Source: Acidobacteriota bacterium
GTDB lineage: Bacteria; Acidobacteriota; Polarisedimenticolia; J045
Assembly: GCA_027021395.1 (NCBI GenBank)
Contig: JALUUK010000317.1
Span: forward strand, 1-47,141
Direction: 5' to 3'
DNA: 47,141 nucleotides
Part shown: positions 19,895 through 47,141 of the stretch, piece by piece
Position numbering within the stretch: position 1 is the stretch's first letter
Layout of the letters: each line of letters begins with the position of its first letter
Program-made: the position numbers and the translations under genes
The notes under the pieces: generated by a model
Database searches by the model: none
Told to the model about the DNA's origin: nothing
The model's input: the letters and a program-made list of their open reading frames with translations, nothing else

Positions 19895-19904
19895 GGCGCG
19901 CCTC

Positions 19905-31130: not shown

Positions 31131-31172
31131 ATAAGGGATGATGTCCGCGAACGTACCAAGGAGGTTGTTTCG

Positions 31173-32498
31173 ATGAATCGATCCAAGAGAAAGGCCCCGG
31201 CACCACGCACTCGAATCTGCCTGGCGCTACTGAGCGTGGGTCTGATCTTGATGCCCGCGGTCGGCGCTGAAGCGCCGACCGACGCCGAGGCACTGAAACG
31301 GGAATACGAGAAACTCGCTCGTGAAATGGAGGAACTTCGCGAAAAACTGGCCAAGATACAAAAGAGCATCGAAAAAGCGGCCGAGGAGAGAAAAGCAGCT
31401 TCGCAGAACGAGAACCGCAAGAGTGCCGATCAAGACCAAGATTTCGTCACCCGTGCCGAAGTCGACGAACTCAAGCAATTGGTAGAGCGTACGGCGACCT
31501 TCACCGAGCAGGACTCGGTCGTCCATCTCGGTGGCTACACGCATGTCGGTATCGCCAAGAGCGAAGGCGGCAACAGCAGTGCAACGGTGGGAGCATTCGC
31601 GCCCATCTTCCACTATCAGTACAAAGATCGTCTCTTGATGGAAACGGAACTCGAGGTTGAACTCGAAGAAAACGGAGACGTCAGGCTTGGACTCGAGTAC
31701 CTGTCTTTAGACCTCTTCCTCAACGACTATTTGGTGCTGGTCGTAGGAAAGTTCATGTCTCCGATCGGGCAGTTTCGCCAGAATCTCCATCCGTCGTGGA
31801 TCAACAAGCTTCCTTCAGCGCCCGTCGGCTTCGGCCACGATGGTGCGGCGCCGATTTCCGAAACGGGAGTGCAGTTGCGCGGTGGCGGGATGCTCGGATC
31901 CTTGCGCACGAACTTCGCGTTCTACGTTGCCAATGGTCCTGAAATCGGTCTCGAGCCTGTCGCCGGCCCCAGCCTCGGCCCGACCGGTCCGGAACTCGAA
32001 ATCAAGGCGGAAGGTCAAGCAATGGACGCCGACGGCAACAAGGCTTTCGGCGGCCGCATCGGTCTGCTGCCGAGTCCGAACTTCGAAGTCGGAATCTCCG
32101 CTGCGACCTCTCGCGTGCAATACGAGAGTGAAGCCGCTCGAGACTATGACGTCTTCGGCACCGACTTTTACTTCCATCCCCGTTTCCTCTCCAGCCTCGT
32201 ACTGAGAGGGGAATACATAAAGACGACGGTGGCGGAAGGTGGGATCACGGCTCCGGAGGCCATCAACTTGGAGGCCTGGTATGTGCAAGGCGCCTACCGC
32301 CTTCCCGGAAACTTCGAGTCGGTGATTCGCTATGGGAAATTCGATACCGGCGAGAGCGCCGTCACGCAGTGGATGCCTGGTATCAACTACTACATTGCCA
32401 ACCACATCATTGCGAAACTCGGATACGAATTCAACGACAGCAGGGATCCGGCAAATCAAGCCGATCGCATGCTGATGCAACTGAGCTACGGGTTCTAG
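31173..32498 (+). CDS. porin (OprO/P-like beta-barrel) with N-terminal coiled coil
   Basis: ATG 31173 after AAGGAGG. Signal peptide. Heptad-like EALKREYEKLAREMEELREKLAKIQKSIEKAAEE. GKFMSPIGQF motif. C-terminal ..LMQLSYGF. Confidence 0.7.
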   Translation: MNRSKRKAPAPRTRICLALLSVGLILMPAVGAEAPTDAEALKREYEKLAREMEELREKLAKIQKSIEKAAEERKAASQNENRKSADQDQDFVTRAEVDELKQLVERTATFTEQDSVVHLGGYTHVGIAKSEGGNSSATVGAFAPIFHYQYKDRLLMETELEVELEENGDVRLGLEYLSLDLFLNDYLVLVVGKFMSPIGQFRQNLHPSWINKLPSAPVGFGHDGAAPISETGVQLRGGGMLGSLRTNFAFYVANGPEIGLEPVAGPSLGPTGPELEIKAEGQAMDADGNKAFGGRIGLLPSPNFEVGISAATSRVQYESEAARDYDVFGTDFYFHPRFLSSLVLRGEYIKTTVAEGGITAPEAINLEAWYVQGAYRLPGNFESVIRYGKFDTGESAVTQWMPGINYYIANHIIAKLGYEFNDSRDPANQADRMLMQLSYGF

Positions 32499-32546
32499 AG
32501 CATGTGCGAAATACAGTGGAACTCGGAGACAACGGAGGACAAAGCG

Positions 32547-33254
32547 ATGAAGAAGAAGACGAGAGTTCGAATGACGGTTTCCCTCGTGGTCATTTCCGCC
32601 GTGTTGCTGGCGGTGGTGCCGACGGTTGCGACGAGTTCAGTGCAATCGTCATCGGCGCAGGCATCATCGGTTCAGCCATCAGCGGTTCAACCGTCCGAAA
32701 GCAACGAGATCGCAGATCCGGTTCAAGGCGCCACCCTTTGGGCGAATCACTGCGGTCGCTGCCACAATCACCGCAATCCCGGTGAATTCACCGAGGATGA
32801 ATGGCGGCCCGTGCTGGCACATATGCGAGTTCGTAGTGGACTGACCGGTCCGGAGACGAAAGATATTCTCGCCTACATGCAGCAAAGTCGTTGGGCCAAG
32901 TCGAAGCAATCTCAAAGCACGAAAGTCCCGCCGGTGACGAAGGCCGCGGAGAACAAACTCGCCAAGGCGATCGCCGATGCAGACGCCGACAACGGCAAAG
33001 AGATCTTCTCCAAGACTTGCTTCGCTTGTCATGGCATGGATGGAAAGGGCATGCTGCCCGGAATGCCGGATCTGACGGGAGTCGACAGTCCGTTGCTCAA
33101 ACCCGATGGCGTGCTGATGGAGAGCCTGACCAACGGTGTACAGCGCGAAGGCAGTGCTCTGGCCATGCCCCCCAAGGGCGGCAACCCGAATCTGAGCAAA
33201 GAAGACCTCTACGACGTATTGCGCTACATGATGAACGAGTTCAAACCCAAATAA
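32547..33254 (+). CDS. periplasmic dihaem c-type cytochrome
   Basis: ATG 32547 after GGAGGA. Signal peptide and Ser/Val/Gln-rich linker. Two CxxCH motifs (CGRCH, CFACH); second domain has distal ALAMPPKGG. Confidence 0.85.
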   Translation: MKKKTRVRMTVSLVVISAVLLAVVPTVATSSVQSSSAQASSVQPSAVQPSESNEIADPVQGATLWANHCGRCHNHRNPGEFTEDEWRPVLAHMRVRSGLTGPETKDILAYMQQSRWAKSKQSQSTKVPPVTKAAENKLAKAIADADADNGKEIFSKTCFACHGMDGKGMLPGMPDLTGVDSPLLKPDGVLMESLTNGVQREGSALAMPPKGGNPNLSKEDLYDVLRYMMNEFKPK

Positions 33255-33310: not shown

Positions 33311-33538
33311 AGTGGGTCTGCTCGGAAAAATAGCTTCATGAATGAACCGAGGATTCTCGCAGCGCTTCTTCCGATGGTCGGCGGCGTACCGGCAGATCGA
33401 CGGGTTTCTGCTGCAAGGACGAGGGATTCACCGGACATTGTCGGGCAAGGGCCATGACGAAGGCGTGAAATCCCGAGGAATCAGCGTCTACTCACGGCGA
33501 GGCGTCCTGCGGGCGGGGCGTCGGCAAGGCCTGTGCGA

Positions 33539-35020
33539 ATGAGCCCGGCGAAGGGAGAGATCGTGCGAAAAGATATCGCCGTCTTCGCGCTCGTGTCGTG
33601 CTTCTTTCTTTTCGGCGCGGCCGACGGAGCCGTGGACGAGGTCTGGGTAGTGAATCAAAATTCTCAGGATCTTGCGATCATCGATACGGCGGGAGAGGTC
33701 GTGAGCGGTCGTATCTCCCTGGGACTGGGAACGAGCGATCTTCCCTTTGCCGTCGCGTTTTCCACGGCGCCGGATGCTCAGGGCGCCTACGCCTTCGTCA
33801 CGCAGGGGCAATTCCTGCGCGTGATCGATGCCTTCAGCCGTACCGTCACACGAACTCTGAACATGGAAGACGTGCTCGGTGAGGTCTTCGAACTCCGCGG
33901 AGTGGCCGCCGGCCTGCCGATCGAGGTGCGCGACGCGCAGGGCACCGTCATTCGCTCGTTCCTGTTCGTCGGGGCGCGTCGCCAATGTTGCGATGGGAAC
34001 GCCTACTATGTGATCTTCGATCAAGAGGCACTGATCACCGGCGGGCCGGGATCGCGAGACTTGGTCGATTTTGCTCCTCTCGAGACGGGAGCTTCCACGG
34101 CGCAAAGTGTCGAGGTGATGGAAGCGCCGGGCGGTGACGAACGTTCCCGCGCGATCTTTACGGTTTATCGCGGCGCGCCCGGCGCGCCGACGCATCTGGT
34201 TGCGCACCAAGTTTTCACCGACGGGAGCGCCGCCGTTTGGCGGCACCGTGTTCTGCGCACGACGGCTGTCCCCGGAGGAACGCCGGTGTCCGACGCGATC
34301 GGCGCTTCTTCTCCGTTCCAGCGCGAAATGCAGGCCATGCCCGAAGGCGGCAGCGGAAGGATCGTCAACCTGCGCACGGGCGATTCCTGCACCATCGCGG
34401 GCGCGAACTTCGGCGCCACTTCGCTCAACGGGCCGGGACCGAATCGCCATGATTTGCTGGCGCTCGACCCGCTTGCGGGAAAGCTCTTTAGTATCGATCC
34501 GGTAGATTGCGCCGATACGCAATACACGGTGGGTGCCGAGCCTTCCGATGTGGAGCACTTGAACGTAGTGGATGGTCCGAAGGCCTACGTGTCGAATTTC
34601 GGCGACGGTAGCGTCTCGATTCTCCAAGAAGATCAAACCATCACGACGATAGAAGGAGTCGGTGATGGTCCGCGCGCTTTGGCACCTCGCCGGACCGCTC
34701 AGGCTTGCCGGATCAACAATGTGACGATCACCAAGGGAGAAGCTGATTCCAACGTGCTCAACTGGAACCAAGTGAGCTGTCCGACGGAAACTCTCTATCA
34801 GATCTGGTGCACCTGCCAAGAGCCAGGATGTCCGGTCGATTGTCAACCGCCTCTTCCACCTTCGAATCCGGAAGCCCTGACCACGACCATACAGCCTCTT
34901 CCCCCGGACGGCCCGATCGCCGAGGGGCAGTGGCTGCCGCTTGGAACCGTCGGCTGTTGCACATTCATCCATCCCGACGGTGGGTCGGCCAACATCAACT
35001 ACCTCGTCGAACCGCAGTGA
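33539..35020 (+). CDS. exported YVTN-type beta-propeller repeat protein with Cys-rich C-terminus
   Basis: Signal peptide (..KDIAVFALVSCFFLFGAADG). YVTN-like blades VWVVNQNSQDLAIIDTAGEVV, AFVTQGQFLRVIDAFS, AYVSNFGDGSVSILQ. C-terminal CPTETLYQIWCTCQEPGCPVDCQ...GCC. Start 33539 (ATG) or 33563 (GTG after GGGAGAG). Confidence 0.75.
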   Translation: MSPAKGEIVRKDIAVFALVSCFFLFGAADGAVDEVWVVNQNSQDLAIIDTAGEVVSGRISLGLGTSDLPFAVAFSTAPDAQGAYAFVTQGQFLRVIDAFSRTVTRTLNMEDVLGEVFELRGVAAGLPIEVRDAQGTVIRSFLFVGARRQCCDGNAYYVIFDQEALITGGPGSRDLVDFAPLETGASTAQSVEVMEAPGGDERSRAIFTVYRGAPGAPTHLVAHQVFTDGSAAVWRHRVLRTTAVPGGTPVSDAIGASSPFQREMQAMPEGGSGRIVNLRTGDSCTIAGANFGATSLNGPGPNRHDLLALDPLAGKLFSIDPVDCADTQYTVGAEPSDVEHLNVVDGPKAYVSNFGDGSVSILQEDQTITTIEGVGDGPRALAPRRTAQACRINNVTITKGEADSNVLNWNQVSCPTETLYQIWCTCQEPGCPVDCQPPLPPSNPEALTTTIQPLPPDGPIAEGQWLPLGTVGCCTFIHPDGGSANINYLVEPQ

Positions 35021-35056
35021 TCCCATCGCAACCTCGGAGGAACCATCGGGGGCCGC

Positions 35057-37540
35057 GTGCGGTATGCTACGAGGATCGTGAGCCCCGCAAAGACGCTCTG
35101 CCTCGCCGTTTTCGTCGTCATGGTGACGGCGGGCTTGGCCTGTCGGAATTCGGAGCCACGGAACGCTGAACCGGCACCGCCGGAGCAAGCGCCGATCGAG
35201 GAAGAGGAACGAGACCCGGTCGATCTTTCGACCTGCCCGCGAGGGTATGAGCCGTGGCTCGAGTCTCTCGAGCGCGCGCAAAAGACGAAAGGTCTACCGT
35301 CACTCGAGCAGCAACTCACAGCGATCTCGGCGCGTTGCAGCGATCAATGGGAAGCTCATTGGGCCTTGGGAGATGCGATCTTCCGTCGATTCGATTTTGC
35401 GGCTGCTCGGCCGCATCTCGAACGAGCAGCCGAAATCGCGGAAGCCGAGTCGTCGGAGATGGGGCTTGCTTGGAGTCGCTACCGCCTCGGCTTCGTCGAC
35501 TTCACCGCCGGCAAGTGGAGCCGGTCGGAATCGATGACGCGTTTCGCCATCGAGGTTTTCAGGCGACGCGGAATGATGAAAGAGGAGACCTTCGCCTGGA
35601 ACAACTTGGCGGCGGTGCTTCAAGAAAGCGGTCGTTTCGGCCAGGCACTCGAAGCGATGGACAAAACGGAGGCGGGTCTCGAGCGACTGGGATTGGCGGG
35701 CCCCGCGCGTCGCTTTGCGCAAAACAAGGCCCTTCTTCAGATCTCCCTCGGCGATGCCCATGGTCCCGAAGAGACCTTGAGCGCTCTATACGAAGAAGCA
35801 AAGCAAGCGGGAGATGGAGTTCTGCGAGATTCTTCGGCCCTTGCTCTGGCATCGCTTCATCGCCTGATCGACGCCTTCGACACGGCCGATGCCTGGTATG
35901 CCCGTGTCGGATCCGACGACACGTTGCCGGAAGCGGCGACCTTGAGCGCGCTCGGTCGCGGTCGTGTGGCGCTGCTTCGCAATGATCCCGATGCCGCGTT
36001 GATGCACCTCGATCAGGCGGCGACCATTGCGGAGAAAAACGATCTCGAGGCGCTAGTCGAGGTCATCGACGCCTTCGCCGGAGCGGCTCTGTTGCGGGTC
36101 GGGCGTTCGGCAGAGGGAACGGCTCGACTCAGGCGTCTCATGGACTCCGATGCCGACGCCCGTCCGGAGTTGGCTTGGCTGACGCGTTGGCTGATGGGCC
36201 GGGAGTTCGAACGCAGAGGCGACGAACGCAGCTTACCGCTGCTGAAAGAGGCTCTCTCACGTCTGGAGACCGAGGGGCTCAAGCTCGATCGCAGCGCCGA
36301 GGGCATGCGATTCTTGCGCGAGCGCATCGAAGTCTACATCGATCTGGCCGCCGCATACGCCCGGCGCGAGGGATACGAAAACGAGATCGCCGACATCATG
36401 TTTCGCGCACACGCTCGCTCTCTCGCGAAGATCTCCGCACACGAGGCGAATTCAAAGGCAGGGGCTCCGGCGACGATTCAAGCGTCGATGCCCGAAGATG
36501 CCTTGATCATTTCCTACCTCTTCGGACGAGAGCAGGGCGTCGCGCTGGCCATCACGCGCGACGTCCGGCGCACCTTCGCCATCCCCGGCCGCGACACGCT
36601 CTCGAAACCGGTCAAGGCCTATCGCGCGGCGTTGATCCGACCGCTAAAGAGTTCCGAAGCGCGCGCGCACCCGCTCGAGGACTTTCTACGGTCGGTGGAA
36701 TGGGGGATGAAGGTGAGTGATGCGCTGCTCGCACCGGTAGCCGATCTGCTCGACCGCTCTTCGCAGATCTTCATCGTTCCTGATGGGGAACTCGCCCTTC
36801 TACCCTTCGCCGCGTTGATTCGGACTCCGGTGGAGGGTTCGAAGTGGCCGTCCTTTCTAGGAGCAACGCACGACGTGGCGGTGTTGCCGGTGCTCTCCAC
36901 GCCGGCAATAGAGAGTGCGGGGCGCTATCCCATGCTTCTCGTCGGAGATGCCATCGCCGATGAGGGCGGCGAGTTTCCTGCTCTCGATCGCTCGGCGGCC
37001 GAAGTTGCAGGGATCTTCGAGCAATGGGAAGGCGGCGGCGAAGTCGACAAAGTCGTATCGGAGGAAGTGACCGTATCGAAACTCGGCGATGGCCGGCTCG
37101 CTCGATATCGGACGATTCATTTTGCGACGCACGCGGTGGCCTCGACGCGTGATCCTCGCAAGTGCGCCGTGATCTGCTCGCGCGGCGAGCGCTTCGGTTT
37201 CGACCGAATCGCCGCTCTTCACCTCGATCGCGCTCTCGTCGTCTTGTCGTCTTGCCGCGGCGGCGAGGGCGAGATCATTCCCGGCGAAGGCATCGTCGGG
37301 CTCGGCTGGGCATTTCTTTCGGCGGGCGCATCGGCTACGGTCACCAGCCTTTGGCAAGTCGAAGATGATTCGGCGGCGCGATTGATGTTGGAATTTCATC
37401 GCCGGCTTCGGCTCGGAAGCAGTGCGACACGGGCCCTAGCAGCCGCCGGTCGCCTCCTGGCGCGTGAGAGAGCACACCCTGCTTATTGGGCGCCTTTCGT
37501 CATTGCGCTCAACACCGAGGCGAGGACGGAGGGGTCATGA
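35057..37540 (+). CDS. TPR-repeat CHAT-domain (caspase-like) protease with N-terminal signal/anchor
   Basis: C-terminal CHAT signature IHFATHAV (His) ... LVVLSSCRGGEG (Cys) ... GIVGLGWAFLSAGASATVTSLWQVEDD. TPR-like helical repeats in the middle. Hydrophobic N-terminus LCLAVFVVMVTAGLAC. Confidence 0.9.
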   Translation: MRYATRIVSPAKTLCLAVFVVMVTAGLACRNSEPRNAEPAPPEQAPIEEEERDPVDLSTCPRGYEPWLESLERAQKTKGLPSLEQQLTAISARCSDQWEAHWALGDAIFRRFDFAAARPHLERAAEIAEAESSEMGLAWSRYRLGFVDFTAGKWSRSESMTRFAIEVFRRRGMMKEETFAWNNLAAVLQESGRFGQALEAMDKTEAGLERLGLAGPARRFAQNKALLQISLGDAHGPEETLSALYEEAKQAGDGVLRDSSALALASLHRLIDAFDTADAWYARVGSDDTLPEAATLSALGRGRVALLRNDPDAALMHLDQAATIAEKNDLEALVEVIDAFAGAALLRVGRSAEGTARLRRLMDSDADARPELAWLTRWLMGREFERRGDERSLPLLKEALSRLETEGLKLDRSAEGMRFLRERIEVYIDLAAAYARREGYENEIADIMFRAHARSLAKISAHEANSKAGAPATIQASMPEDALIISYLFGREQGVALAITRDVRRTFAIPGRDTLSKPVKAYRAALIRPLKSSEARAHPLEDFLRSVEWGMKVSDALLAPVADLLDRSSQIFIVPDGELALLPFAALIRTPVEGSKWPSFLGATHDVAVLPVLSTPAIESAGRYPMLLVGDAIADEGGEFPALDRSAAEVAGIFEQWEGGGEVDKVVSEEVTVSKLGDGRLARYRTIHFATHAVASTRDPRKCAVICSRGERFGFDRIAALHLDRALVVLSSCRGGEGEIIPGEGIVGLGWAFLSAGASATVTSLWQVEDDSAARLMLEFHRRLRLGSSATRALAAAGRLLARERAHPAYWAPFVIALNTEARTEGS

Positions 37541-37755
37541 GGCGGCCCCATCTTCCGTCCGGATTCTCCGCCCGAATGCGGACTATTCGCTTTCGCCCGG
37601 TTTCCGCGTGAATTCGGCCGCGGGTTTTCCGTCCCGTAGGCTCCAAGCCGAGCAAGAGCGGACAAAGATGGCGGGAGATTGGTCCGGATATGACTTGGAG
37701 CAAGGAATCTGCCGTAGCTCGGGGGTAGAGTGACATCGAGGAGGTCTCTGCGCCC

Positions 37756-38226
37756 ATGAACGACGAGCGATGTGAGCACGGCATCACCCACGCACTCGAA
37801 GAACACCAAGAGATTCGTCAGAGCAACAAGGACTTGCTGGACTATCTCGACCGGCCTCGCCCCGAGGTTTCGGCCAGCGAATCCTGGGAATGGGCGGTCT
37901 CGCTCCAGGAAAAGCTTACGACGCTGCATGCGCGCGTAAGCCGACACTTTCGTGCGGAAGAAGGCGAAGTTTTGGGAAAGTTGCGCGACAAGCACCCGCA
38001 CGCTGCAGGAAGCCTAGACGCTCTGCTCGCCGAACATGGTGAAATGTTGAAGGAACTTCGTTCGTTGATCGATGCGGCCATGACCTACGCAGAGGCTCGG
38101 CAGCCAGCCGATCCATGCTTGCGGGCGCGCACGAGGCGCCTGTTGGTGGCCATGTCCGAGCACGAAGCCAAGGAAGTCAATTTGATTCAGGAGCTGATGT
38201 TTACCGACATCGGTACGGGTGAGTGA
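37756..38226 (+). CDS. hemerythrin-like (HHE cation-binding) domain protein
   Basis: Four helix-type His/Glu motifs: HALEEHQEI, HARVSRHFRAEEGEVL, LLAEHGEMLKEL, MSEHEAKEVNLI. Its stop overlaps the korA ATG (TGATG). Confidence 0.7.
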   Translation: MNDERCEHGITHALEEHQEIRQSNKDLLDYLDRPRPEVSASESWEWAVSLQEKLTTLHARVSRHFRAEEGEVLGKLRDKHPHAAGSLDALLAEHGEMLKELRSLIDAAMTYAEARQPADPCLRARTRRLLVAMSEHEAKEVNLIQELMFTDIGTGE

Positions 38227-40094
38227 TGGAACTCATAGTCAAGACCGTCAAGGAAAGCATCTTGGAGTTCGTCTCCGATTCAGGGGAAGGCGCGCAAACC
38301 GCGGGCCAGATGTTCGGCACCGTCAGCGCCAAGATGGGCAACGGCGTCTGGACGGTGGAGATCATTCCCGCCGAGATCGAACCCCCGCACCGTTCGCGAT
38401 CGGGTGCGAGCGGCAATCGCATTCGTATTGCCACCGGCCCCGTGACCAACATGGGAGAGACCGCCGACGTTGTCGTGGCTTTCAACGAGCAGGTCCTCTA
38501 CAGCCGCACGGATGTTCATGCATTGCGTCCGGGAACGATCATCCTTCTCGAGGACAAGTGGAAGGATGACGCCGATCCCGAGATTCGCGAGCAGTACAAA
38601 ACCGCGCTCGCAGAATTCGAAGAGCTAGGCTTCGTGGTCTTCGAGTTTCCGCTGGAAAAGGAGTGCAAGAAGATTCTTCCCGACCCGCGGCGCGGCAAGA
38701 ACATGTGGGCTCTCGGATTGGTCGCTCGCATCTACCAGCGTGATATGTCGATCATTCTCGAGGAGATTCGGCGCAAGTTCACTCGCAAGAGTCAGAAGCT
38801 CGTCGACGTCAACCAGCAACTCGTGCGAGCGGGCTATGACTGGGCTGCAGAGAATGTTCCCTATCGCTTCGAAGTGCCCGGAAGCAAACCCGACCAAGAC
38901 ATGGTGGTCATGAACGGAAATCAGGCGGCGGCGCTTGGAACGATGGCTGCGGGCATCGAGGTTTGCTCGATGTATCCGATCACGCCGGCGACGTCGGTTT
39001 CTCACCAACTTGCCGCTATATTCCATGAAGTCGGCGGATTCGTGCATCAAGCAGAGGATGAAATCTCCGCCATCGGCTACGCGCTCGGTGCATCCTATGC
39101 CGGCAAGACGGCGATGACGGTGACCTCCGGTCCGGGTTTGGCGCTCAAGACCGAATTCCTCGCGCTCGCGGTGCAGGCCGAACTTCCGCTCGTCTTGCTG
39201 CTCGTGCAGCGCGGTGGTCCCTCGACCGGTTTGCCGACGCGCGTCGAACAAGGCGATCTTCTTTCGTCGATATTCGCCGCGCCCGGAGATGCGCCGCGAA
39301 TCGTCTTGGCGGCATCCGATATCGAGGAGTGCTTTCACTTCATGATCACCGCACGCAAACTGGCGGAGACCTTCCGCACGCCGGTGATCGTGCTCACCGA
39401 TGCCAACTTGGCAACCGGACAACAGCCGTTCAAGCGACCGGTCATGTTGGAAGAGTGGATCTCGCCGCCCATCGATCAAAGCGATTGGGATCCGAACGTC
39501 GAACCTTACGACTGGGACGCGTCAACCGGAGTTTCCGAACGACCGATTCCGGGCCAGAAGGGGGGCGAGTACGTTCTGACCGGTCTTGCGCACAACGAGA
39601 AGAGCCAAGTGGCCTACGAATCCTGCGTCAACCAGCGCTCGATGGAAGCGAGGAGCCGCAAGCTGATCGCGCTGCAAAAATCGCTCAAGCCTCCCAAGAT
39701 CCACGGCGACGAGGAAGGCGATCTCTTGGTGGTTTCTTGGGGATCGACTCGCGGCGCGATCGAGGAAGCGGTCGATAGAATCCGCGCCGAAGGCGCGAAG
39801 GTTTCTTCCCTGACCTTGCGCTTTCTCTCACCGCTCGAGCCCGGGCTCGATGCCATCTTCAAGCGCTTCAAGAAAGTGATGACGGTGGAAGTGAACTACA
39901 GCGACGATCTCGACGATGGGTTCGTCACCGAAGAATCCAGGCGCTACGCCCAGCTCGCTTGGTTGCTGCGGGCGAAGACATTGATCGACATCGACTGCTG
40001 GTCGCGGGTTTACGGTATTCCGCTCGCTCCCGGATTGGTCGAAGAAGCCGTGCGTGCACGGTTGAGCGCGCTCAAGACGGCGAAGGCATCTTAG
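38226..40094 (+). CDS. korA: 2-oxoacid:ferredoxin oxidoreductase alpha subunit (gamma-alpha fusion, KorA-type)
   Basis: N-terminal gamma-like domain (GEGAQTAGQMFG), YPITPATSVSHQL, EDEISAIGYALGASYAGKTAMTVTSGPGLALK, QRGGPSTGLPT. GTG 38223 is an alternative start. Confidence 0.9.
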   Translation: MELIVKTVKESILEFVSDSGEGAQTAGQMFGTVSAKMGNGVWTVEIIPAEIEPPHRSRSGASGNRIRIATGPVTNMGETADVVVAFNEQVLYSRTDVHALRPGTIILLEDKWKDDADPEIREQYKTALAEFEELGFVVFEFPLEKECKKILPDPRRGKNMWALGLVARIYQRDMSIILEEIRRKFTRKSQKLVDVNQQLVRAGYDWAAENVPYRFEVPGSKPDQDMVVMNGNQAAALGTMAAGIEVCSMYPITPATSVSHQLAAIFHEVGGFVHQAEDEISAIGYALGASYAGKTAMTVTSGPGLALKTEFLALAVQAELPLVLLLVQRGGPSTGLPTRVEQGDLLSSIFAAPGDAPRIVLAASDIEECFHFMITARKLAETFRTPVIVLTDANLATGQQPFKRPVMLEEWISPPIDQSDWDPNVEPYDWDASTGVSERPIPGQKGGEYVLTGLAHNEKSQVAYESCVNQRSMEARSRKLIALQKSLKPPKIHGDEEGDLLVVSWGSTRGAIEEAVDRIRAEGAKVSSLTLRFLSPLEPGLDAIFKRFKKVMTVEVNYSDDLDDGFVTEESRRYAQLAWLLRAKTLIDIDCWSRVYGIPLAPGLVEEAVRARLSALKTAKAS

Positions 40095-40122
40095 TTCCCC
40101 CAACAATGAAAAACGGGAGTCG

Positions 40123-41082
40123 ATGACGATGTACGGAATCAAGAAAGACTGGGATCTCGAGCCGCTGCCGCGCTGCCTCGTGATGGAGGACTACCAGGCC
40201 GCGGAACCGCGCTGGTGCGCGGGTTGCGGCGACTTTGCGGTGCTTACTGCATTGCAACGCCTCGCACGGGACAAGCAGCTTGCGCCGGAAAAAACCGTCT
40301 TCGTTTCGGGCATCGGCTGCTCGAGTCGATTGCCGCACTACATGAAAACCTACGGATTCCACGGTCTACATGGAAGACCCTTGCCGGTCGCCTCGGGCAT
40401 CCGTGCCCGCCGACCGGATCTCGACATTTTCGTGATCACCGGAGACGGTGACTGCTGCGCCATCGGCACGGCTCATTGGATTCACGCCATCCGCTACAAC
40501 ATGAAGATGACGGTCTTGCTTTTGGACAACAACATCTACGGATTGACCAAGATGCAGACCTCTCCGACGACGCCCAAGGGCCACTACTCGAATACGCAGA
40601 CGACCGGCGCCTATCTTTCGCCGATCAATCCACTGACCGTCACCTTGGGGATCACGAATCGTTCTTTCGTGGCGCAGACCGTGGATTGGTATCCGGCGCA
40701 TGTGTACGACACGCTGAAAGCGGCGCACGAGCATCCGGGGTTGGCGTTTGTGAGAATCCTCCAGCGCTGCCCGCATTTCATGCCCGGCGAGTTCGATGCC
40801 ATCCAACAAGATGCGACCAAGATCCTAGCGCTCGAGCATCCCGATGGAATCCCGATCGATGATGGTCTCGCGCGCGTGCTCACGGAGCGCAAGGAGCACG
40901 ATCCGAGGAACTTGGGATCGGCACTCGAAGTGGCCGGTCGCGAGGACGTTCTGCCGATCGGCTTGTTCTATCGCGATCTCGAGGCCGAACGCTACGATGA
41001 CTTTGCCGCGGCCGGCCTAGGAATGAGCGCAAAAGAAAAAGTTGCCGGAGCGCAGAGAGCCATGGACCGATTTCTGATCTGA
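40123..41082 (+). CDS. korB: 2-oxoacid:ferredoxin oxidoreductase beta subunit (ThDP-binding, KorB-type)
   Basis: WCAGCGDFAVL, GIGCSSRLPHY, ThDP motif ITGDGDCCAIG ... LLLDNNIYGLTKMQTSPT. GGGAG lies 4 nt upstream of the ATG. Confidence 0.9.
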   Translation: MTMYGIKKDWDLEPLPRCLVMEDYQAAEPRWCAGCGDFAVLTALQRLARDKQLAPEKTVFVSGIGCSSRLPHYMKTYGFHGLHGRPLPVASGIRARRPDLDIFVITGDGDCCAIGTAHWIHAIRYNMKMTVLLLDNNIYGLTKMQTSPTTPKGHYSNTQTTGAYLSPINPLTVTLGITNRSFVAQTVDWYPAHVYDTLKAAHEHPGLAFVRILQRCPHFMPGEFDAIQQDATKILALEHPDGIPIDDGLARVLTERKEHDPRNLGSALEVAGREDVLPIGLFYRDLEAERYDDFAAAGLGMSAKEKVAGAQRAMDRFLI

Positions 41083-41141
41083 TGCTCTAGACGAGCGATT
41101 TCCCGTTCTCGACGGGTAGGACCGAAACGAGGGCACGATCG

Positions 41142-44100
41142 ATGGCAGAACCCGGATCCTGGTTTGCCGGCGAAGGCCGAGCGGCCGTCAACCTTTTCGA
41201 GCGAATGATATGCGGGCGGGGTGCCGTATTCGATCCCGCAACGGCCGAGGGCATGGCCATGGTCTCGCGCCGCAGCGCGGTCTTGCTACCGGAAGAGCAA
41301 GGCATCGCATTTTCCCGGCCGGTCTCCGGCTTGGCGGTGGTGTATCACGAGATCGCTCCGCCGGCAGAGTCACGCGTCGATGGAGCGACGGTCCGCCTCG
41401 TGGCGAGCACGATCCAAGAGGCGATCGACCACTGCCTCGTCGCACACTGGCTGGTGCGCAAACGGCGGATTCCGGTCGTCTGCGCGCTTCCTGCGCAAGT
41501 TGCCGATCGCATGCACTTCGTGGCACTGCCTTCACGAGAGATCATCGATGCTCTGCTCGAATCGGAAAACGTCGAGAGTGCATCCGGCGGGATGCCGGCG
41601 AGTTCACTCGAGGACGATCTTCAAGCCGCCTTCGATGCGGTCGGCAACGCCACCGGCCGATCCTTGGCGATGACCGCAGCGGACGATCTAGTCGAAGAGG
41701 AGGACGATCGGGCAGCAGGCAAGTGTCTTTCGATCGCGGCGTGGCCGCGCCGGCACTTTGCCTTGCCGCTGATGCTCGATGTATGCGCACGATTGAGAGA
41801 GCACCGCTCCTTGATGCTCGATCGCCACGCGGACCGTGACGGGGGGGTCGAAGCTCTGGTTCTTCGCGAGACGAAATGCCGTCTCGCGCAGGCCAAGGAT
41901 ATCGACGTGCTCCTGGTCTCCGAACCGGCGTATTGCGACTTCGAGTCGATCGGTGAGCAACTTCGTGATGGTGCGGTGGTCATTCTGATCACCATGGCTG
42001 CGGCGGATGGCGATGCGCTCGACGATGCCGGGGCCGCCGCGCTGGCATCCAAGAAAGCGAGAATCGTACGGATTGATCCTTCTGCTGCGCCATCGTTCGG
42101 TAGCGCCGACGAGTTCGCGGTGTTGCAGGGAGCCTTGCTCGCGGGAATCGCGGCAGCGGCGCCGTGGCTCGAAGAGGCTTGCAGCAGGGCGGGCGACGCC
42201 GATGCATCCGGTGCATGGGGCTACGCCGCGTTGAAAGCAGGCCTTCGAGGCGATGTGCTCGAGGCCGAGATCGAAGCCGATGAGCGCTCGCCGAGCGCAT
42301 GGGCCGAGCAAGGTGTGCTCTTTCATCGCACCGGTCGCGGCAAGCGCTGGCGTGGTGAGCCCTTGGCTTCCGCTCCGCTCTGGCCCAAAGCTCTCGCGCC
42401 GTTGAGTCGAGCGGATTCGCTGTGGAGCGGATTTCCTCTATGGATCCGGAGGGAGGACGGTGCCGAGGTTGAAGTCCTTCCTTGTGCCGACAAACTCGAT
42501 GAAGCATTCGATCACCTCGAGAAGAGCGGCAAGAACATCGCGCTGCTGCGCGAGCATCGACCGCGTCTTCTACGCGAAATCTACATGGTGACGGTCGGCC
42601 GAAGTGCCCTGCCGTTTGAAAAAGTTCTCGACGATGCTGCCGAAGGGTTTCTTTCGCGCTTCGAAATGAGCACGGCGGCTCGCAACGAACTCGAATCGCA
42701 GTTGCGCGAAGTACTCGACGTGATGCGTTCCCACGACGACGTCATCGGTCTGAGCCGACACTGTGTGGTCGATCTTCACGCGGTGGTCGTCGGGCACGAA
42801 CGCGACGAATGTCGCCGGAAGCTTAGAAAGAACGTCGCTCGCCTCGCTTCCCAACTTCGAGAAATGCTCGATTTGGACACGAGCCATTCGCCCAAGGGAC
42901 GGGCCGCGTCTTCGCTCTCGCCGACGCTCGGCGGAGTGACCGGAGTCTTTCTCGATGCCGAGGCGCTCTCGGCGGTCTTACCCGAGCATCGCGGATCGCA
43001 GCATCTCGGCAAAGAGCGTCGCGCGCGCATGTCTGATGCTCTCGAAGCGCTCGAGGCCTACCTCTCCCGTGATCCGACGGATGATGCCCCACGCGTAATC
43101 TATCGTGAGGGGGTCTTCAAAGCCGAGGAGATTCCACACACGGCCTACCGTTTCGAGCATGCGCAGCCGGCATCCGCGGCTCTCGGCGTATTCGAGGGCC
43201 TCGCAGCCGAAATGGAGGCGCTCTTTCGCGCGACGCGCGTGGCACGTCTGGAAATCGAAGGCGACTACGATTCGGTGCGACACGATGATGCCATCGCATC
43301 CTTGACCTGGTCCTCTTTCAGCGAGGAAGAGGTGCGGGCCATCCCGCAAGTCATCGTGCTCGAGACGGTCGCAGGTTTCGGCGGTCCGGCTCTGGCCTCT
43401 TTTTCGGATCTCTTGCGTTCGGGAAGACCGATTCAAGTGTTGGTCGTCGAGGAGCTTCTCGAAGATCTCGGAAGCGCGAGTGCGGAGTTGATGAGCCGCT
43501 ATCACGCAGGCTTGGCCTATCTTGCCGTGGCGCACCGCGAGGCCTTCGTCGCGAGGACCACGCCGGCTCACCCCAAACAGCTTTGCGAGAGCTTGCATCG
43601 CGCGGGCAAAACGCTTCGACCGGCCTTGGTCTTGACGTCGATCCCGAGCCGCGACGCCGTCATCGATTCGGCGCTCGAACTCGCTGCGGCTTTTCATGCG
43701 CGTGCGGCGTCGGTCTATACCTACGACCCCGACGCGGGAGAATCTTGGGCCGATTGCTTCGATCTATCGGACAATCCCGACCCTGATCGAGTCTGGCCGC
43801 GCATCGCGATAGGCCGAGACGTCGCCGAAGACACGGAAGCTACGGTGACGTTGGCCGACGTGATGGCCATGGACCTGCGCTATCGATCGCATTTTAGGGT
43901 CTTGCCGCCCGATGCCTGGAGCGACGAGCAGATCGAAATCGCGACTTTCATCGAATCCTGGGCGGAGTCCTCCGACCATCGCGTGCCTTTCATTTGGATC
44001 GAAGATTCCGAAGGCCGGAAGCAACGCGCAATCGTGACCCGCGAAGTGGCGCTCTTCTGTCGCGATAGGGCGCGCGCTTGGCGTGTGCTGCAGGAAGTCG

Positions 44101-44687
44101 CAGGAACCGACAGCGAATACGTTCGCCGCGCCGTGCGCGAGGCGCGCCGCACGGCAGAGGATGAGACCCGTGAGGCGCTCGATGCCGCCAAAGCGCGGCA
44201 TGAGGACGAAATCGAAGAACTTCGCATGCGTGCGGCGAGCGAAGCCGTCGATCGTCTCGTCGGGGTGCTCACCGGTAGCGGAGCGCCTGTTCCTCTCGGC
44301 GATCTCGGTTCGTGGGATGCAGCACCTCCGCCGACCTCGCCGAAAGCGCTCGACACTCCCAAACCGGCGGAAAGCGAGGCCGAGGACGATACTCCGGCGC
44401 AGGCCGCGGAAGCAGCGGTCGATGATGAAATCGCCGGCTTTGACGATCCTTATATCGATTCCGCGTTGTGTACGACGTGCAATGAGTGCACCAATCTCAA
44501 TGGCATGCTCTTCAAGTACAACGACAACAAGCAAGCCGAGATTGCCGATCCCGCAGCGGGCACCTTCGAGCAATTGGTCATGGCTGCCGAGAAATGCCCC
44601 GTACGCTGCATTCATCCCGGTGTTCCGCGTGCCGGCGACGAGACGGCCACCGACGAGATGATCGCGCGTGCCGCGCCGTTCAACTGA
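41142..44687 (+). CDS. PFOR-derived 1181-aa protein with degenerate ThDP region and C-terminal single-cluster ferredoxin domain
   Basis: Segments collinear with pyruvate:ferredoxin oxidoreductase. Domain I-like ASTIQEAIDHCLVAHWLVRKRRIPVV. Gamma/domain III-like DIDVLLVSEP...ARIVRIDPSA...AVLQGALLAGIA. Domain VI/VII-like LAYLAVAHREAFVARTTPAHPKQLCESLHRAGKTLRPALVLTSIPS and SVYTYDPDAG..CFDLSDNP. C-terminal YIDSALCTTCNECTNLNG..AAEKCPVRCIHPG. Confidence 0.8.
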   Translation: MAEPGSWFAGEGRAAVNLFERMICGRGAVFDPATAEGMAMVSRRSAVLLPEEQGIAFSRPVSGLAVVYHEIAPPAESRVDGATVRLVASTIQEAIDHCLVAHWLVRKRRIPVVCALPAQVADRMHFVALPSREIIDALLESENVESASGGMPASSLEDDLQAAFDAVGNATGRSLAMTAADDLVEEEDDRAAGKCLSIAAWPRRHFALPLMLDVCARLREHRSLMLDRHADRDGGVEALVLRETKCRLAQAKDIDVLLVSEPAYCDFESIGEQLRDGAVVILITMAAADGDALDDAGAAALASKKARIVRIDPSAAPSFGSADEFAVLQGALLAGIAAAAPWLEEACSRAGDADASGAWGYAALKAGLRGDVLEAEIEADERSPSAWAEQGVLFHRTGRGKRWRGEPLASAPLWPKALAPLSRADSLWSGFPLWIRREDGAEVEVLPCADKLDEAFDHLEKSGKNIALLREHRPRLLREIYMVTVGRSALPFEKVLDDAAEGFLSRFEMSTAARNELESQLREVLDVMRSHDDVIGLSRHCVVDLHAVVVGHERDECRRKLRKNVARLASQLREMLDLDTSHSPKGRAASSLSPTLGGVTGVFLDAEALSAVLPEHRGSQHLGKERRARMSDALEALEAYLSRDPTDDAPRVIYREGVFKAEEIPHTAYRFEHAQPASAALGVFEGLAAEMEALFRATRVARLEIEGDYDSVRHDDAIASLTWSSFSEEEVRAIPQVIVLETVAGFGGPALASFSDLLRSGRPIQVLVVEELLEDLGSASAELMSRYHAGLAYLAVAHREAFVARTTPAHPKQLCESLHRAGKTLRPALVLTSIPSRDAVIDSALELAAAFHARAASVYTYDPDAGESWADCFDLSDNPDPDRVWPRIAIGRDVAEDTEATVTLADVMAMDLRYRSHFRVLPPDAWSDEQIEIATFIESWAESSDHRVPFIWIEDSEGRKQRAIVTREVALFCRDRARAWRVLQEVAGTDSEYVRRAVREARRTAEDETREALDAAKARHEDEIEELRMRAASEAVDRLVGVLTGSGAPVPLGDLGSWDAAPPPTSPKALDTPKPAESEAEDDTPAQAAEAAVDDEIAGFDDPYIDSALCTTCNECTNLNGMLFKYNDNKQAEIADPAAGTFEQLVMAAEKCPVRCIHPGVPRAGDETATDEMIARAAPFN

Positions 44688-44695
44688 CGGAGACG

Positions 44696-45529
44696 ATGAA
44701 CGAGATTCTCATCGGTAGCGCAGTCATGTTCGGCGTCGCCGGATTCTTCGGTGTCGTTCTGGCCGTGGCCTATCGCAAGCTGAGCGTGGAAGAAGATCCT
44801 CGCATCGAGGTGGTCGAGAACATGTTGCCGGGAACGAATTGCGGTGCGTGCGGCCAGCCCGGATGCCATGCTTTCGCGGAGGCTTTGTGTCGAGGGGAAA
44901 CGGCGCCGGGCATCTGCACCGTCAGCGCTCCGGAAGCCATCGAAGACATGGCGACTTTTCTCGGGGTTGCGGCGGGAACGCAGGAAAAACGGGTGGCCCG
45001 GTTGCATTGTGCGGGCGGAGCATCGTCGGTCAAACAACTCGCGGCATACCGTGGCATCGCTTCCTGCCGCGCGGCCTTCGTCGTCAACGGCGGGGGGAGA
45101 GCTTGCGCTTGGGGATGCCTCGGGCTCGGGGACTGCGAGACGGCATGCACCTTCGATGCCATCGCCATGAACGTCGAGAACCTTCCGAAGGTCGATGTCG
45201 ATCTCTGCACGGCGTGCAACGACTGTGTGGAAGTCTGTCCTCTCGATCTCTTCACGCTAGAGCCCGTTTCGCATCACGTGCTGGTACAGTGCGCTTCTCC
45301 GCTCATCGGTGATGCCGCCCGTGCAAGCTGCAAAGTGGCCTGCGATGCCTGCGGTCGTTGCGCGCTCGATGCCGCCGAAGGAAGCATCGAGATGGCCGGC
45401 GGACTTCCGCAGGTGGTTTTGCCGAGCAAGGCCGGTCGGGAAAGCACCTACCGCTGCCCGACGGGTGCGATTCAGTACATCGAAGGCAATCAATTCGACG
45501 ATATCGAGATCGGAGTTCGCGATGCATGA
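44696..45529 (+). CDS. RnfB-like membrane-anchored Fe-S (polyferredoxin) protein
   Basis: ATG 44696 within ORF 44486... N-terminal TM ILIGSAVMFGVAGFFGVVLAVAY. RnfB-type LPGTNCGACGQPGCHAFAEAL. Further clusters CLGLGDCETAC, CTACNDCVEVCP, CDACGRC..YRCPTGAI. Confidence 0.85.
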   Translation: MNEILIGSAVMFGVAGFFGVVLAVAYRKLSVEEDPRIEVVENMLPGTNCGACGQPGCHAFAEALCRGETAPGICTVSAPEAIEDMATFLGVAAGTQEKRVARLHCAGGASSVKQLAAYRGIASCRAAFVVNGGGRACAWGCLGLGDCETACTFDAIAMNVENLPKVDVDLCTACNDCVEVCPLDLFTLEPVSHHVLVQCASPLIGDAARASCKVACDACGRCALDAAEGSIEMAGGLPQVVLPSKAGRESTYRCPTGAIQYIEGNQFDDIEIGVRDA

Positions 45530-47141
45530 CGACCCTTCGGCCCGAGGTTGGCTACAGGGGCTCTTCGGCGCTAGGAAATCCTCGAAGGCGACGGGAGAGG
45601 TTCTGCTGCGCACGGGGATCGAAGCAGTGTTGCAAGTCGAAGAAGCCGTCGCCGAAGTGCTCCACCACGATCGGGACGAAGACCCCTCGGCACTGCTGGC
45701 TAGGGCCACTGGATCGGCTCTCATGGGCACGCGTACGGCGGTGATCATCGAACGCAGCGACGTGGATCTTCGCCTGCAGCTCGTCGAAGCGGTGCGTCAA
45801 TGCGTACCGTTGGTAGTGCACGTCGTTCTCGATACCCACAACGACGACGAGAGCGGCCTAGCGGCATTGCTCGATAGCGGCGCGGTCGTTTTCTCTGCGA
45901 GCACGGTGCAGCAGGCGGCGGATCTTTCGCTGGTGGCGCACCGTGTCGCCGAAACGGGGCTGATACCCGTCGTCGTGACGATGGATGCGCGCGAGACGGC
46001 CGAGTCTCTACAGGATGTCGTTCTTCCGATCGACGGGGAATACGTGAACTATCTCGGCGCTCCGGACGACACGGTTGCGTGTCCGACGCCCGCGCAGATC
46101 ATGCTCTTCGGCGACCGGCGACGGCGGCTGCCGCGTTGGTTCAGCCTGGATAGTCCAAGCGCTCATGCCGTTCCCGCGGCAGGAGAAGACCGCTCGGCGC
46201 AGATGGCCGCCCGCCATTTCTTTTTCGATGCGCATCTCGGCGACCACATCGACGAAGCGATGCGCGAGATCACGTCGCTCACGGGGCGCCTTCTTGCCAC
46301 CGTGCTTTCCTGCGCAGCAAAGGGTGCGTCCAAGGCCCCGTCGCAGGTGCTCTTCGCCCATGGATCACTGGCCGACTTGGCGCGTGCCACTCTTCTTCAC
46401 GCAGAATTCCGCGAGTCGAAGAAGGTGGGTTTGATCACTCTCGTCGCTTTGCGTCCTTTCCCCGAAAGTGCCTTGCGGAAGCAATGCACGGTCGTCGAAA
46501 TCGCAGCGATTCTCGAGCGTTCTCATGCGCGATTGGCGGCCCCGCACTGGCATGCGGACTTGCGCGCCGCACTTACGGGTGGACCGATCACCTGGACCAC
46601 GGCTCATTTTCCATCGGGGAGTCAAGCGATCACCCCCGGGCACGTACTCGCAGCCGTCGACAATCTGAATCGGCGCGATCGTCGCCGAGACGAAATTTGG
46701 CTGGGATTGACGCCACCGACCGTCGAGACCCGTTTTCCAAAGCGGGAAGTCTTGCTCAATCGTATCGCGCGCGAGTATCCGGACTTGTCGACGGTCCTCG
46801 ACGAATCTACGGCGACGGTCGACCTACGTCCTGCGGGTGCCGTGACCTTGGCTGTTTGCGCGCGCGAAACGGATCTTCCGGCGGAGGTCTTGCCAGAGAT
46901 CGTGCGCGCGGCTTTTTCGTCGAAGGGACCCTATGCCAGAACTCGTACGACGAGACCGCGGCCGGAATACTGGACGGCGCATATCACTCTCGCCGGCGCT
47001 TCATTCGACGATCCAGGCGATGCGGTGCCGGTCGATGGGATCTTGCTGGCGGGCCTCGATTTTCCGCCTTCGCTCGACCTGCCGGCGGAAGTCTGTGAAG
47101 ACGCCTTTCTACTCGTCGCCACCGACAAGGATTCCAAAGAG
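45522..47141 (+). CDS. second PFOR-like protein, 3'-truncated by the window end (540 codons visible)
   Basis: Not in the ORF track because no stop is reached. Hand translation from ATG 45522 (ATGCATGA overlap with the previous stop) hit no in-frame stop: I checked codon by codon to about 45,910 and read the rest in frame less rigorously. Motifs: MHDDPSARGW..TGIEAVLQVEE..ASTVQQAADLSLVAHRVAETGLIPVVVTMDARE..SLTGRLL..KVGLITLVALRPFPESAL.., collinear with PFOR domains I-II. Confidence 0.75.
   Translation, partial: MHDDPSARGWLQGLFGARKSSKATGEVLLRTGIEAVLQVEEAVAEVLHHDRDEDPSALLARATGSALMGTRTAVIIERSDVDLRLQLVEAVRQCVPLVVHVVLDTHNDDESGLAALLDSGAVVFSASTVQQAADLSLVAHRVAETGLIPVVVTMDARETAESLQDVVLPIDGEYVNYLGAPDDTVACPTPAQIMLFGDRRRRLPRWFSLDSPSAHAVPAAGEDRSAQMAARHFFFDAHLGDHIDEAMREITSLTGRLLATVLSCAAKGASKAPSQVLFAHGSLADLARATLLHAEFRESKKVGLITLVALRPFPESALRKQCTVVEIAAILERSHARLAAPHWHADLRAALTGGPITWTTAHFPSGSQAITPGHVLAAVDNLNRRDRRRDEIWLGLTPPTVETRFPKREVLLNRIAREYPDLSTVLDESTATVDLRPAGAVTLAVCARETDLPAEVLPEIVRAAFSSKGPYARTRTTRPRPEYWTAHITLAGASFDDPGDAVPVDGILLAGLDFPPSLDLPAEVCEDAFLLVATDKDSKE

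Follow-up and report, generated by a model that had tools for sequence, protein, structure and literature searches.

An rnf operon from an Acidobacteriota bacterium that carries korAB and two large, apparently non-catalytic relatives of pyruvate:ferredoxin oxidoreductase

In the usual picture, the Rnf complex exchanges its electrons with ferredoxin that is free in solution. It has six subunits, RnfABCDGE, and is described from Acetobacterium woodii (9ERI), Clostridium tetanomorphum (7ZC6) and Azotobacter vinelandii (Rnf1); a 2025 review of RNF and NQR makes no mention of an accessory subunit derived from pyruvate:ferredoxin oxidoreductase (PFOR). The string korA-korB-por-like-rnfB-por has been listed for tubeworm endosymbionts as "rTCA cycle cluster 2" (rTCA, reductive tricarboxylic acid), with "por" taken as a working pyruvate synthase (Rubin-Blum et al. 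2019, PMC6315080; Mitchell et al. 2024, PMC11636981). Here we describe an operon with the same string of genes from an Acidobacteriota bacterium (GenBank assembly GCA_027021395.1, contig JALUUK010000317.1). The stretch analysed, hereafter the window, is 47,141 nt long, and the operon begins near its 3' end. In brief, korAB encode a two-subunit 2-oxoacid:ferredoxin oxidoreductase (OFOR), the rnf genes encode an Rnf complex, and two large genes, which we call X1 and X2, encode PFOR-derived proteins that appear to have lost catalysis.

A literature search for a system joining Rnf to PFOR or KorAB gave nothing beyond the tubeworm symbiont work (PMC6315080, PMC11636981), and no description of an Rnf operon with embedded PFOR-derived subunits, of their active-site loss or of the tethered ferredoxin found here. 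The two tubeworm papers do not note lost active sites, a tethered ferredoxin or conservation across phyla together with rnfCDGEA. There is no NCBIfam model for X1, X2 does not pass any, and source databases name such genes "4Fe-4S binding protein" or "pyruvate ferredoxin oxidoreductase". An earlier annotation made from the window's letters and open reading frames (ORFs), here called the sequence-only reading, could not match the region to any characterised system. The search found no account of the X1/X2 arrangement as such, but it attaches to the well-characterised Rnf, and the gene order has been listed before, in a tubeworm symbiont, with a real PFOR read into it. The parts are known in kind, namely Rnf, OFOR/PFOR and ferredoxin I, and the operon is widespread, conserved and mis-annotated.

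The region examined runs from position 37756 to the end of the window (47141), where the ORF calls give six closely packed genes on the + strand: a hemerythrin-like gene (37756..38226), korA (38226..40094), korB (40123..41082), X1 (41142..44687), rnfB (44696..45529) and a partial X2 (45522..47141, the first 540 codons, with no stop). The sequence-only reading had counted seven genes, one too many, whereas all four of its gene junctions are exact on direct reading. The stop of the hemerythrin-like gene overlaps the ATG of korA (TGATG), 59 nt separate the korB stop (41082) from the X1 ATG (41142), 8 nt with a GGAG inside lie between the X1 stop and the rnfB ATG, and rnfB and X2 overlap by 8 nt, ATGCATGA. 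A promoter and terminator consensus scan of 37300-47141 gave counts at chance level and did not indicate operon boundaries.

An exact-protein look-up with RnfB retrieved a second contig of 41.9 kb, L001, which shares 12,446 nt with the window at 99.95% identity. It provides the extension that the sequence-only reading had called for: X2 is complete there, with 1388 aa, and rnfC, rnfD, rnfG, rnfE and rnfA come next with no gaps. RnfC and RnfD score 493 and 313 bits against their NCBIfam models and RnfE scores above its cut-off; RnfG and RnfA have the expected models as best matches, yet fall slightly under the TIGR trusted cut-offs. The region makes up the first half of an operon of ten genes, korA-korB-X1-rnfB-X2-rnfC-rnfD-rnfG-rnfE-rnfA. 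The earlier interpretation, a working OFOR coupled to two non-catalytic PFOR-derived proteins and a membrane Fe-S carrier, was largely right but incomplete, as it missed the Rnf pump past the window end. Positions 34696-47141 of the window and L001:1-12446 differ at 6 of 12,446 positions, including a Ser/Pro difference at residue 857 of X1 and a Lys/Glu difference at residue 539 of X2, and therefore at least two near-identical strains have been sampled.

The korA gene encodes the OFOR alpha subunit, with domains III-I-II fused, and its product matches Pfam POR, POR_N and PFOR_II as well as TIGR03710 (526 bits, cut-off 482.75). The korB gene encodes the beta subunit, with the domain for thiamine pyrophosphate (TPP), the PP domain; its product matches TPP_enzyme_C (5.4e-25) and PFO_beta_C in Pfam, and scores 227 bits against TIGR02177, under the cut-off of 262, though every motif is present. 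The translation holds WCAGCGDF, GIGCSSR, ITGDGD...LLLDNN and RCPHF, that is, the GDG-X26-NN TPP site and four Cys for one [4Fe-4S] cluster. KorAB has no ferredoxin domain of its own, as in other two-subunit OFORs. Domain calls and motifs agree with the sequence-only reading that korA and korB have the motifs of a functional OFOR, and KorAB is a complete two-subunit enzyme with every catalytic motif kept. The closest solved relative of KorA is the 2-oxoglutarate:ferredoxin oxidoreductase (OGOR) of Magnetococcus marinus (6N2N_A, E 4e-83), and this match, the one line of support, suggests specificity for 2-oxoglutarate. KorAB shares with the two-subunit OGORs of M. marinus (6N2N) and Mycobacterium tuberculosis (KOR) the alpha(III-I-II)/beta(VI) build, the single cluster and the absence of a delta or ferredoxin domain, but korAB is here embedded among rnf genes, whereas those genes stand by themselves and go with a soluble ferredoxin.

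RnfB, 277 aa, has a hydrophobic N-terminus followed by the PF04060 FeS domain and Fer4 domains. The NCBIfam RnfB models are its best matches (TIGR01944, 76.4 bits, cut-off 68.7), and it aligns with the solved subunits 9ERI_B (E 2.8e-52 over residues 2-223) and 7ZC6_B (2e-40). The sequence-only reading had called it an RnfB-like polyferredoxin anchored in the membrane; it is a membrane Fe-S protein by prediction, yet it is more than RnfB-like. Because rnfCDGEA follow X2 on the near-identical contig, we assign it as the true subunit B of a complete Rnf operon, and RnfBCDGEA together make up a complete Rnf-type NAD(H):ferredoxin ion pump, whose activity is predicted. The six subunits are the same as in the described complexes, with family-level scores, and RnfB has the same build of N-terminal membrane anchor, PF04060 and ferredoxin-type domains. 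The operon differs from those in having a PFOR-like gene of approximately 1400 codons between rnfB and rnfC, and a second PFOR-derived gene and korAB before rnfB.

The part of X2 inside the window spans a degenerate domain I, domain II and the start of domain III. Its Pfam matches are weak (POR_N 6.8e-9, PFOR_II 1.1e-6), but a profile of 20 X2-family proteins matches the PFOR of Moorella thermoacetica (6CIN_A) with E 1.9e-71 over domains I, II, III, V and VI. We aligned X2 with canonical PFORs, long PFORs of approximately 1570 aa and rnf-linked PFORs of approximately 1690 aa. All of these references hold YPITPS, the domain-I Glu and Arg, two CxxCxxCxxxCP motifs, CxGCGE...TGC...TxC and GGDG...DTxVYSNTGGQ. 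In X2 the TPP motif GDG-X(~26)-NN/SN is gone, with LMGREAL...VLDDS where PFORs show GGDG...DTEVYSNTGGQ. The ligands of the proximal [4Fe-4S] cluster are gone as well: GGDGAEPGSGE, AGDLA and TPSPA stand at the aligned positions, the Cys being replaced by Glu, Ser, Leu and Ser, and the fourth Cys is lost too. X2 from the window also lacks the YPITPS loop, the TPP-activating Glu and the substrate Arg of domain I; some gammaproteobacterial relatives retain the domain-I Glu and Arg positions, but not YPITPS. What X2 does retain are the eight Cys of domain V, in two CxxCxxCxxxCP motifs, which are invariant in the 20 sequences. By these motifs X2 is a PFOR relative that would be unable to do PFOR chemistry.

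The same pattern is found in the wider family. Among 77 X2-type ORFs at the genome loci, 60 keep the two ferredoxin motifs and have lost the TPP, proximal CxxC and PITPS motifs, and 13 keep all motifs. In two others a proximal CxxC-like motif is all that is left, the TPP motif being absent, and a further two, both from Phycisphaerales, lack the domain-V Cys. The loss of catalysis thus appears to be family-wide and all-or-none. The residues that replace the cluster ligands are conserved across the family, as AGGDGAExGSGERLA and HAPSPxRHGF (HAPSP being the consensus of the 20-sequence profile at a proximal-cluster position). Because these replacement residues are themselves conserved, we consider the X2 proteins to be maintained, not decaying. 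Decaying pseudogenes were considered for both X1 and X2 and rejected, as the genes have intact ORFs with conserved motifs and occur in hundreds of lineages. The two deviating Phycisphaerales proteins come from metagenome-assembled genomes (MAGs; L036:9740-14356 and L047:9689-14314) and have lost all eight domain-V Cys, e.g. CVSDGRLWTSCP; they would bear no Fe-S cluster, though they are placed in a full operon.

X1 is a protein of 1181 aa with a reduced PFOR-type architecture. Degenerate domains I and II take up residues ~1-400, a helical insert ~430-660, a pseudo-PP domain ~660-990 and a long helix 992-1043; these are followed by a flexible linker (residues ~1044-1103, 44271..44450) and a C-terminal single-cluster ferredoxin domain with CxxCxxC...CP (residues ~1104-1160, 44451..44621). 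Its only Pfam match is this last domain, Fer4_13 (1.4e-6), and a PDB sequence search with X1 alone found no PFOR. The Pfam searches that the sequence-only reading had recommended for each protein therefore point to PFOR, weakly, in X2 and show just the ferredoxin domain in X1. The PFOR ancestry of X1 becomes visible through its relatives. Residues 659-1181 are 32% identical over 583 aa to domain VI and the C-terminus of P0003, an intact long PFOR; the N-terminus matches domain I weakly, and long-class relatives of X1 match PFOR_II and POR_N. Word-index searches, with X1 alone and with an 18-sequence alignment, gave 5 and 4 matches and strongly under-report the family, for which an exhaustive HMMER search gave 830 representative clusters at E<=1e-30. 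These fall into two length classes, of about 770-870 aa and about 1000-1400 aa, X1 from the window belonging to the long class.

The AlphaFold2 model of X1, built from a 100-sequence alignment, has a predicted local distance difference test (pLDDT) score of 85 and a predicted template modelling (pTM) score of 0.80. Foldseek places it closest to PFORs (6CIQ_B, E 2e-15; 1B0P_A, 3e-11) and finds OFOR beta subunits as well. An earlier model from a 5-sequence alignment, with a pLDDT of 52, already pointed toward PFOR in Foldseek and was not relied on. Relatives, profile comparison and predicted structure together support a PFOR-type fold and descent for X1. It lacks a TPP motif, with ETVAGFGG...VVEELLEDLG at the aligned positions, as well as the proximal-cluster Cys (TSIPS at the aligned position), the domain-I substrate motifs and domain V; a motif scan of the loci found a TPP or ferredoxin motif in 0 of 50 X1 ORFs. 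The alignments thus bear out the sequence-only reading, which had taken both large proteins to be PFOR-derived and no longer catalytic in appearance: the TPP-binding and proximal-cluster residues are gone from both, and with them each set of residues that TPP chemistry requires. We also considered X1 as a simple fission product of X2 and rejected this, because a pseudo-domain VI is present in X1 itself, as are domains I and II in the long class.

The ferredoxin domain is the most conserved segment of X1, with C1110, C1113, C1116 and C1152 invariant in 100 of 100 sequences, and resembles ferredoxin I of Desulfovibrio africanus (1FXR_A, TM score 0.84, root mean square deviation 1.1 Å in Foldseek). 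The linker before it has pLDDT <50 at residues 1045-1063 and 1068-1098 and is rich in Ala, Pro and Glu; in 100 family members it measures 43-79 aa, with a median of 60, and consists of 23% A, 16% P and 13% E. The lipoyl domains of the E2 subunits of 2-oxoacid dehydrogenases are swinging-arm carriers on Ala/Pro-rich linkers. X1 would likewise present a small carrier on a disordered Ala/Pro/Glu-rich linker of approximately 60 residues in a 2-oxoglutarate enzyme system, but its carrier is an Fe-S ferredoxin with no homology to the lipoyl domain, and the likeness is mechanistic. Compared with PFORs of known structure (Moorella thermoacetica 6CIN, Desulfocurvibacter africanus 1B0P), domain order and fold are alike and X2 keeps both CxxCxxCxxxCP motifs. 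X1 and X2 differ from these in lacking the TPP motif, the proximal [4Fe-4S] ligands and the domain-I substrate motifs and in having an extra helical insert of approximately 100 residues and a C-terminal coiled-coil-like helix; X1 furthermore lacks domains III-V and ends in the tethered ferredoxin.

We scanned one genome per species for relatives of X2 and found one in at least 228 species genomes. The closest matches, 37-40% identical, are from Acidobacteriota and Myxococcales MAGs. Other carriers include Sedimenticola, Candidatus Thiodiazotropha, Woeseiaceae, Thiohalomonadaceae, Chromatiales, Phycisphaerales and other Planctomycetota, Eisenbacteria, Latescibacteria and Calditrichota. Eighty X2 loci were kept and searched by tblastn with the window proteins, and frequencies were taken among loci with enough flank. 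The rnfB gene lies directly 5' of X2 in 66 of 70 loci; upstream of X2 we found X1 in 48/64, korB in 51/61 and korA in 46/55, and downstream rnfC in 65/70 and rnfA in 45/50. The exact order korAB-X1-rnfB-X2-rnfC is present in 36 of the 50 fully informative loci. The loci span Gammaproteobacteria, Planctomycetota, Eisenbacteria, Latescibacteria and Calditrichota. The sequence-only reading had proposed a co-occurrence check and named intact active sites and a neighbourhood not conserved in related genomes as findings that would speak against it; the neighbourhood is strongly conserved and the active sites are not intact. No gene outside the ten-gene core is generally conserved, a NuoF-like gene being found in 9 loci, ApbE in 5, mdh in 4 and a hemerythrin-like gene in 3.

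A second operon architecture, variant B, has the order korA-korB-(~330 aa)-rnfB-(~1690-aa PFOR)-rnfCDGEA and was found in Gemmatimonadota, Rokubacteria, Hydrogenedentota, loci of Phycisphaera mikurensis and locus L005. Its PFOR (P0003-P0005) keeps every catalytic motif in a single protein of approximately 1690 aa, which also carries the C-terminal helix, the A/P-rich linker and the Fer4_13 domain that in the window's form sit on X1. The gene of approximately 330 codons between korB and rnfB, mini-X1, encodes a remote homologue of the X1 core (hhalign 97.7%, E 1.6e-12). The frame of korAB, a small X1-like gene, rnfB, a PFOR-like gene and rnfCDGEA is the same in both architectures; the window's form splits the features between two dead paralogues, whereas variant B is catalytically intact by its motifs, and is itself uncharacterised. 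X1 and X2 are each 31-32% identical to P0003 and less alike to each other, and a helical insert of approximately 100 residues in the proximal-cluster region is common to X1, X2 and the variant B PFOR. These comparisons indicate that the paralogues X1 and X2 both go back to a long-form PFOR. In the simplest history, a long PFOR that was already linked to rnf and bore the tethered ferredoxin would have been duplicated, and both copies would then have lost catalysis, X1 keeping the tethered ferredoxin and X2 domain V. That domains were redistributed between X1 and X2 is the main argument that the two work together.

Further arrangements were observed. In a minimal third form, an rnfB-like gene is accompanied by X2 only, without korAB or X1 (Parabeggiatoa, Thiomargarita, Thiosymbion). 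An Eisenbacteria locus (L040:1-19000) encodes korAB-X1, an intact long PFOR of approximately 1669 aa with Fer4_13, rnfB, a pseudo X2 and rnfCDGEA, and so has three PFOR-derived genes in one operon. Another locus (L069:1-18299) has a second rnfB and an intact PFOR-like pair 3' of rnfA. Small hydrophobic ORFs without family match lie at the rnf genes of two loci, one of 45 aa after rnfA in the window's lineage (L001:19235-19372) and one of 50 aa between rnfG and apbE (L005:16283-16435); they could encode an uncalled Rnf-associated membrane subunit or maturation factor.

We suggest that X1 and X2 serve as Fe-S adaptor subunits, without catalysis of their own, which connect KorAB with RnfB, so that conversion between 2-oxoglutarate and succinyl-CoA would be coupled to NAD(H) and an ion gradient; we give this proposal about an even chance. 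In brief, X1 and X2 would pair as a pseudo-PFOR heterodimer in place of the ancestral homodimer and dock on RnfB, forming an electron path reserved for this operon. The ferredoxin domain of X1, on its tether, would swing between the cluster of KorB and the clusters of X2 and RnfB, and as this domain would carry the electrons, no free ferredoxin would be needed. Ion translocation would be coupled to the net reaction 2-oxoglutarate + CoA + NAD+ <-> succinyl-CoA + CO2 + NADH. Run oxidatively, this could be an added energy-conserving site that stands in for 2-oxoglutarate dehydrogenase (OGDH); in reverse, the step of the reductive TCA cycle that fixes CO2 could be powered by the ion gradient and NADH. 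That all of this takes place in one membrane supercomplex, in which a 2-oxoacid oxidoreductase is hard-wired to Rnf through the pseudo-PFOR heterodimer and swinging ferredoxin as an ion-motive 2-oxoglutarate:NAD+ oxidoreductase, is a more speculative step that we regard as possible but somewhat doubtful.

We propose an association of KorAB, X1/X2 and Rnf on the grounds of gene order, of the shuffling of domains and of co-expression seen in published data. For a tubeworm symbiont the genes are listed as "por / rnfB / por-like / korB / korA", and transcripts of korA, korB, por-like, rnfB and por are all present in the Escarpia symbiont; the authors also noted that tubeworm symbionts lack an OGDH E1 gene (PMC6315080, supplement and supplementary table). 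In Endoriftia, "PFOR-like" and korAB drop together under H2S limitation (PMC11636981). These published expression data fit co-function of korAB, por-like, rnfB and por.

Several points weigh against the adaptor proposal. All of its protein-protein contacts are deduced from gene order and domain shuffling, and the "por" and "por-like" genes of the tubeworm symbionts have been equated with X2 and X1 by gene order alone. The KorAB link is not obligatory, because Beggiatoaceae and Thiosymbion have rnfB-like and X2 adjacent without korAB or X1. X2 may not be solely an electron relay, and may be mainly a scaffold, because two Phycisphaerales X2 proteins have lost the eight domain-V Cys. In a PFOR-like geometry the medial cluster of X2 would have no obvious onward partner, the proximal cluster being gone. 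It should also be noted that KorB, RnfG and RnfA score slightly under their NCBIfam trusted cut-offs.

Some of these observations agree with a simpler arrangement, in which X1 and X2 belong to Rnf, be it as accessory subunits or as its dedicated redox partner, e.g. an oxygen-shielded giant ferredoxin, without contact to KorAB; the latter would be co-located through shared regulation and use soluble ferredoxin. The pairing of rnfB with X2 is the tightest and most widespread of all (66/70) and persists without korAB and X1 in Parabeggiatoa, Thiomargarita and Thiosymbion, and some loci have separate ferredoxin and NuoF-like genes 5' of korA (also in the table of PMC6315080). However, in both architectures and across phyla korAB is a neighbour, in 46-51 of 55-61 informative loci, and KorAB lacks a ferredoxin domain of its own while X1 supplies a tethered one, and we consider an arrangement without KorAB contact rather unlikely. 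It is less likely still that X2, alone or with X1, is a neofunctionalised enzyme whose remodelled site, with the conserved GGDGAExGSGE loop replacing the proximal CxxC, binds another cofactor or acyl-CoA and catalyses or senses something other than TPP-dependent decarboxylation. Such a role would agree with the conserved replacement residues AGGDGAExGSGERLA and HAPSPxRHGF, with the domain-III-like (CoA-binding) region still detected against 6CIN, and with approximately 1400 residues being under selection in hundreds of lineages; but conserved surface or scaffold residues would give the same pattern. Moreover, no known cofactor motif was recognised, X1 belongs to no Pfam or NCBIfam family besides Fer4_13, X2 has only weak PFOR matches, and domain I of X2 in the window is more degenerate than in its gammaproteobacterial relatives.

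The published interpretation, in which X2 is an ordinary PFOR (pyruvate synthase) of the reductive TCA cycle and X1 a divergent second copy, we hold to be very improbable. Overall PFOR homology is clear, source annotations say "pyruvate ferredoxin oxidoreductase", and Rubin-Blum et al. read the tubeworm-symbiont genes in this way (PMC6315080, supplementary note 2). Yet X2 in the window misses the GDG...NN TPP motif, the four proximal-cluster Cys and the YPITPS/Glu/Arg set, and the same losses occur in 60/77 family members, whereas true PFORs and the variant B proteins aligned alongside keep all of these motifs. As far as motifs can tell, a pyruvate synthase role of X2 is already contradicted.

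Electron delivery or harvest near -500 mV at OGOR in oxygen-exposed bacteria is an open problem, both for the reductive TCA cycle of sulfur-oxidising symbionts and for oxidative cycles without OGDH. An operon with its own tethered ferredoxin and a pseudo-enzyme scaffold would make this question directly testable in cultured carriers. If the supercomplex exists, hundreds of lineages, most of them aerobic or microaerobic, would have in it either an extra energy-coupling site for an oxidative TCA cycle or a CO2-fixing step that is driven by the gradient and keeps low-potential electrons away from oxygen. Recognition of X1 and X2 would also correct a recurring annotation, as metabolic reconstructions count such genes as working pyruvate synthase, and would offer a clear case of large metabolic enzymes turned into non-catalytic electron-transfer subunits.

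The hemerythrin-like gene in front of korA encodes an HHE-domain protein of 156 aa (PF01814, E 8.9e-9). tblastn gave no match to it 5' of korA in the other loci, and the hemerythrin-like ORFs 3' of rnfA in 3 loci are unrelated to it. Since genes beyond the ten-gene set are not conserved across loci, we place it outside the core, as a local, lineage-specific accessory. The NuoF-like (Complex1_51K) gene of approximately 415 codons lies 5' of korA in its 9 loci (L012, L014, L068, L077 and others), in agreement with the "nuoF*" listed beside korA in a tubeworm symbiont, and might provide an alternative NAD(H) entry point for the module.

Further upstream in the window, a large TPR-CHAT (caspase-like protease) protein is encoded directly 5' of the hemerythrin-like gene (35057-37540, +), preceded by an ORF of 495 aa without Pfam match (33533-35020). 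At 27673-33254 (+), genes for a PAS histidine kinase and a sigma-54-dependent response regulator precede those for a porin O/P-like outer-membrane protein and a c-type cytochrome with several haems, and the set could form a regulated periplasmic redox module. Two adjacent ORFs (24942-25688 and 25724-26470, +), both of 248 aa and without Pfam match, are possibly tandem paralogues. A CusCBA-type RND heavy-metal efflux system is found at 16643-23182 (-), its membrane-fusion protein having three HMBD heavy-metal-binding repeats. The regions 969-3768 (+) and 6910-9953 (-) hold a yidC and R3H (jag-like) pair and, nearby, system II cytochrome c biogenesis genes (ResB-like, CcsA-like); such a yidC/R3H pair is typical of the origin-proximal rnpA-yidC region.

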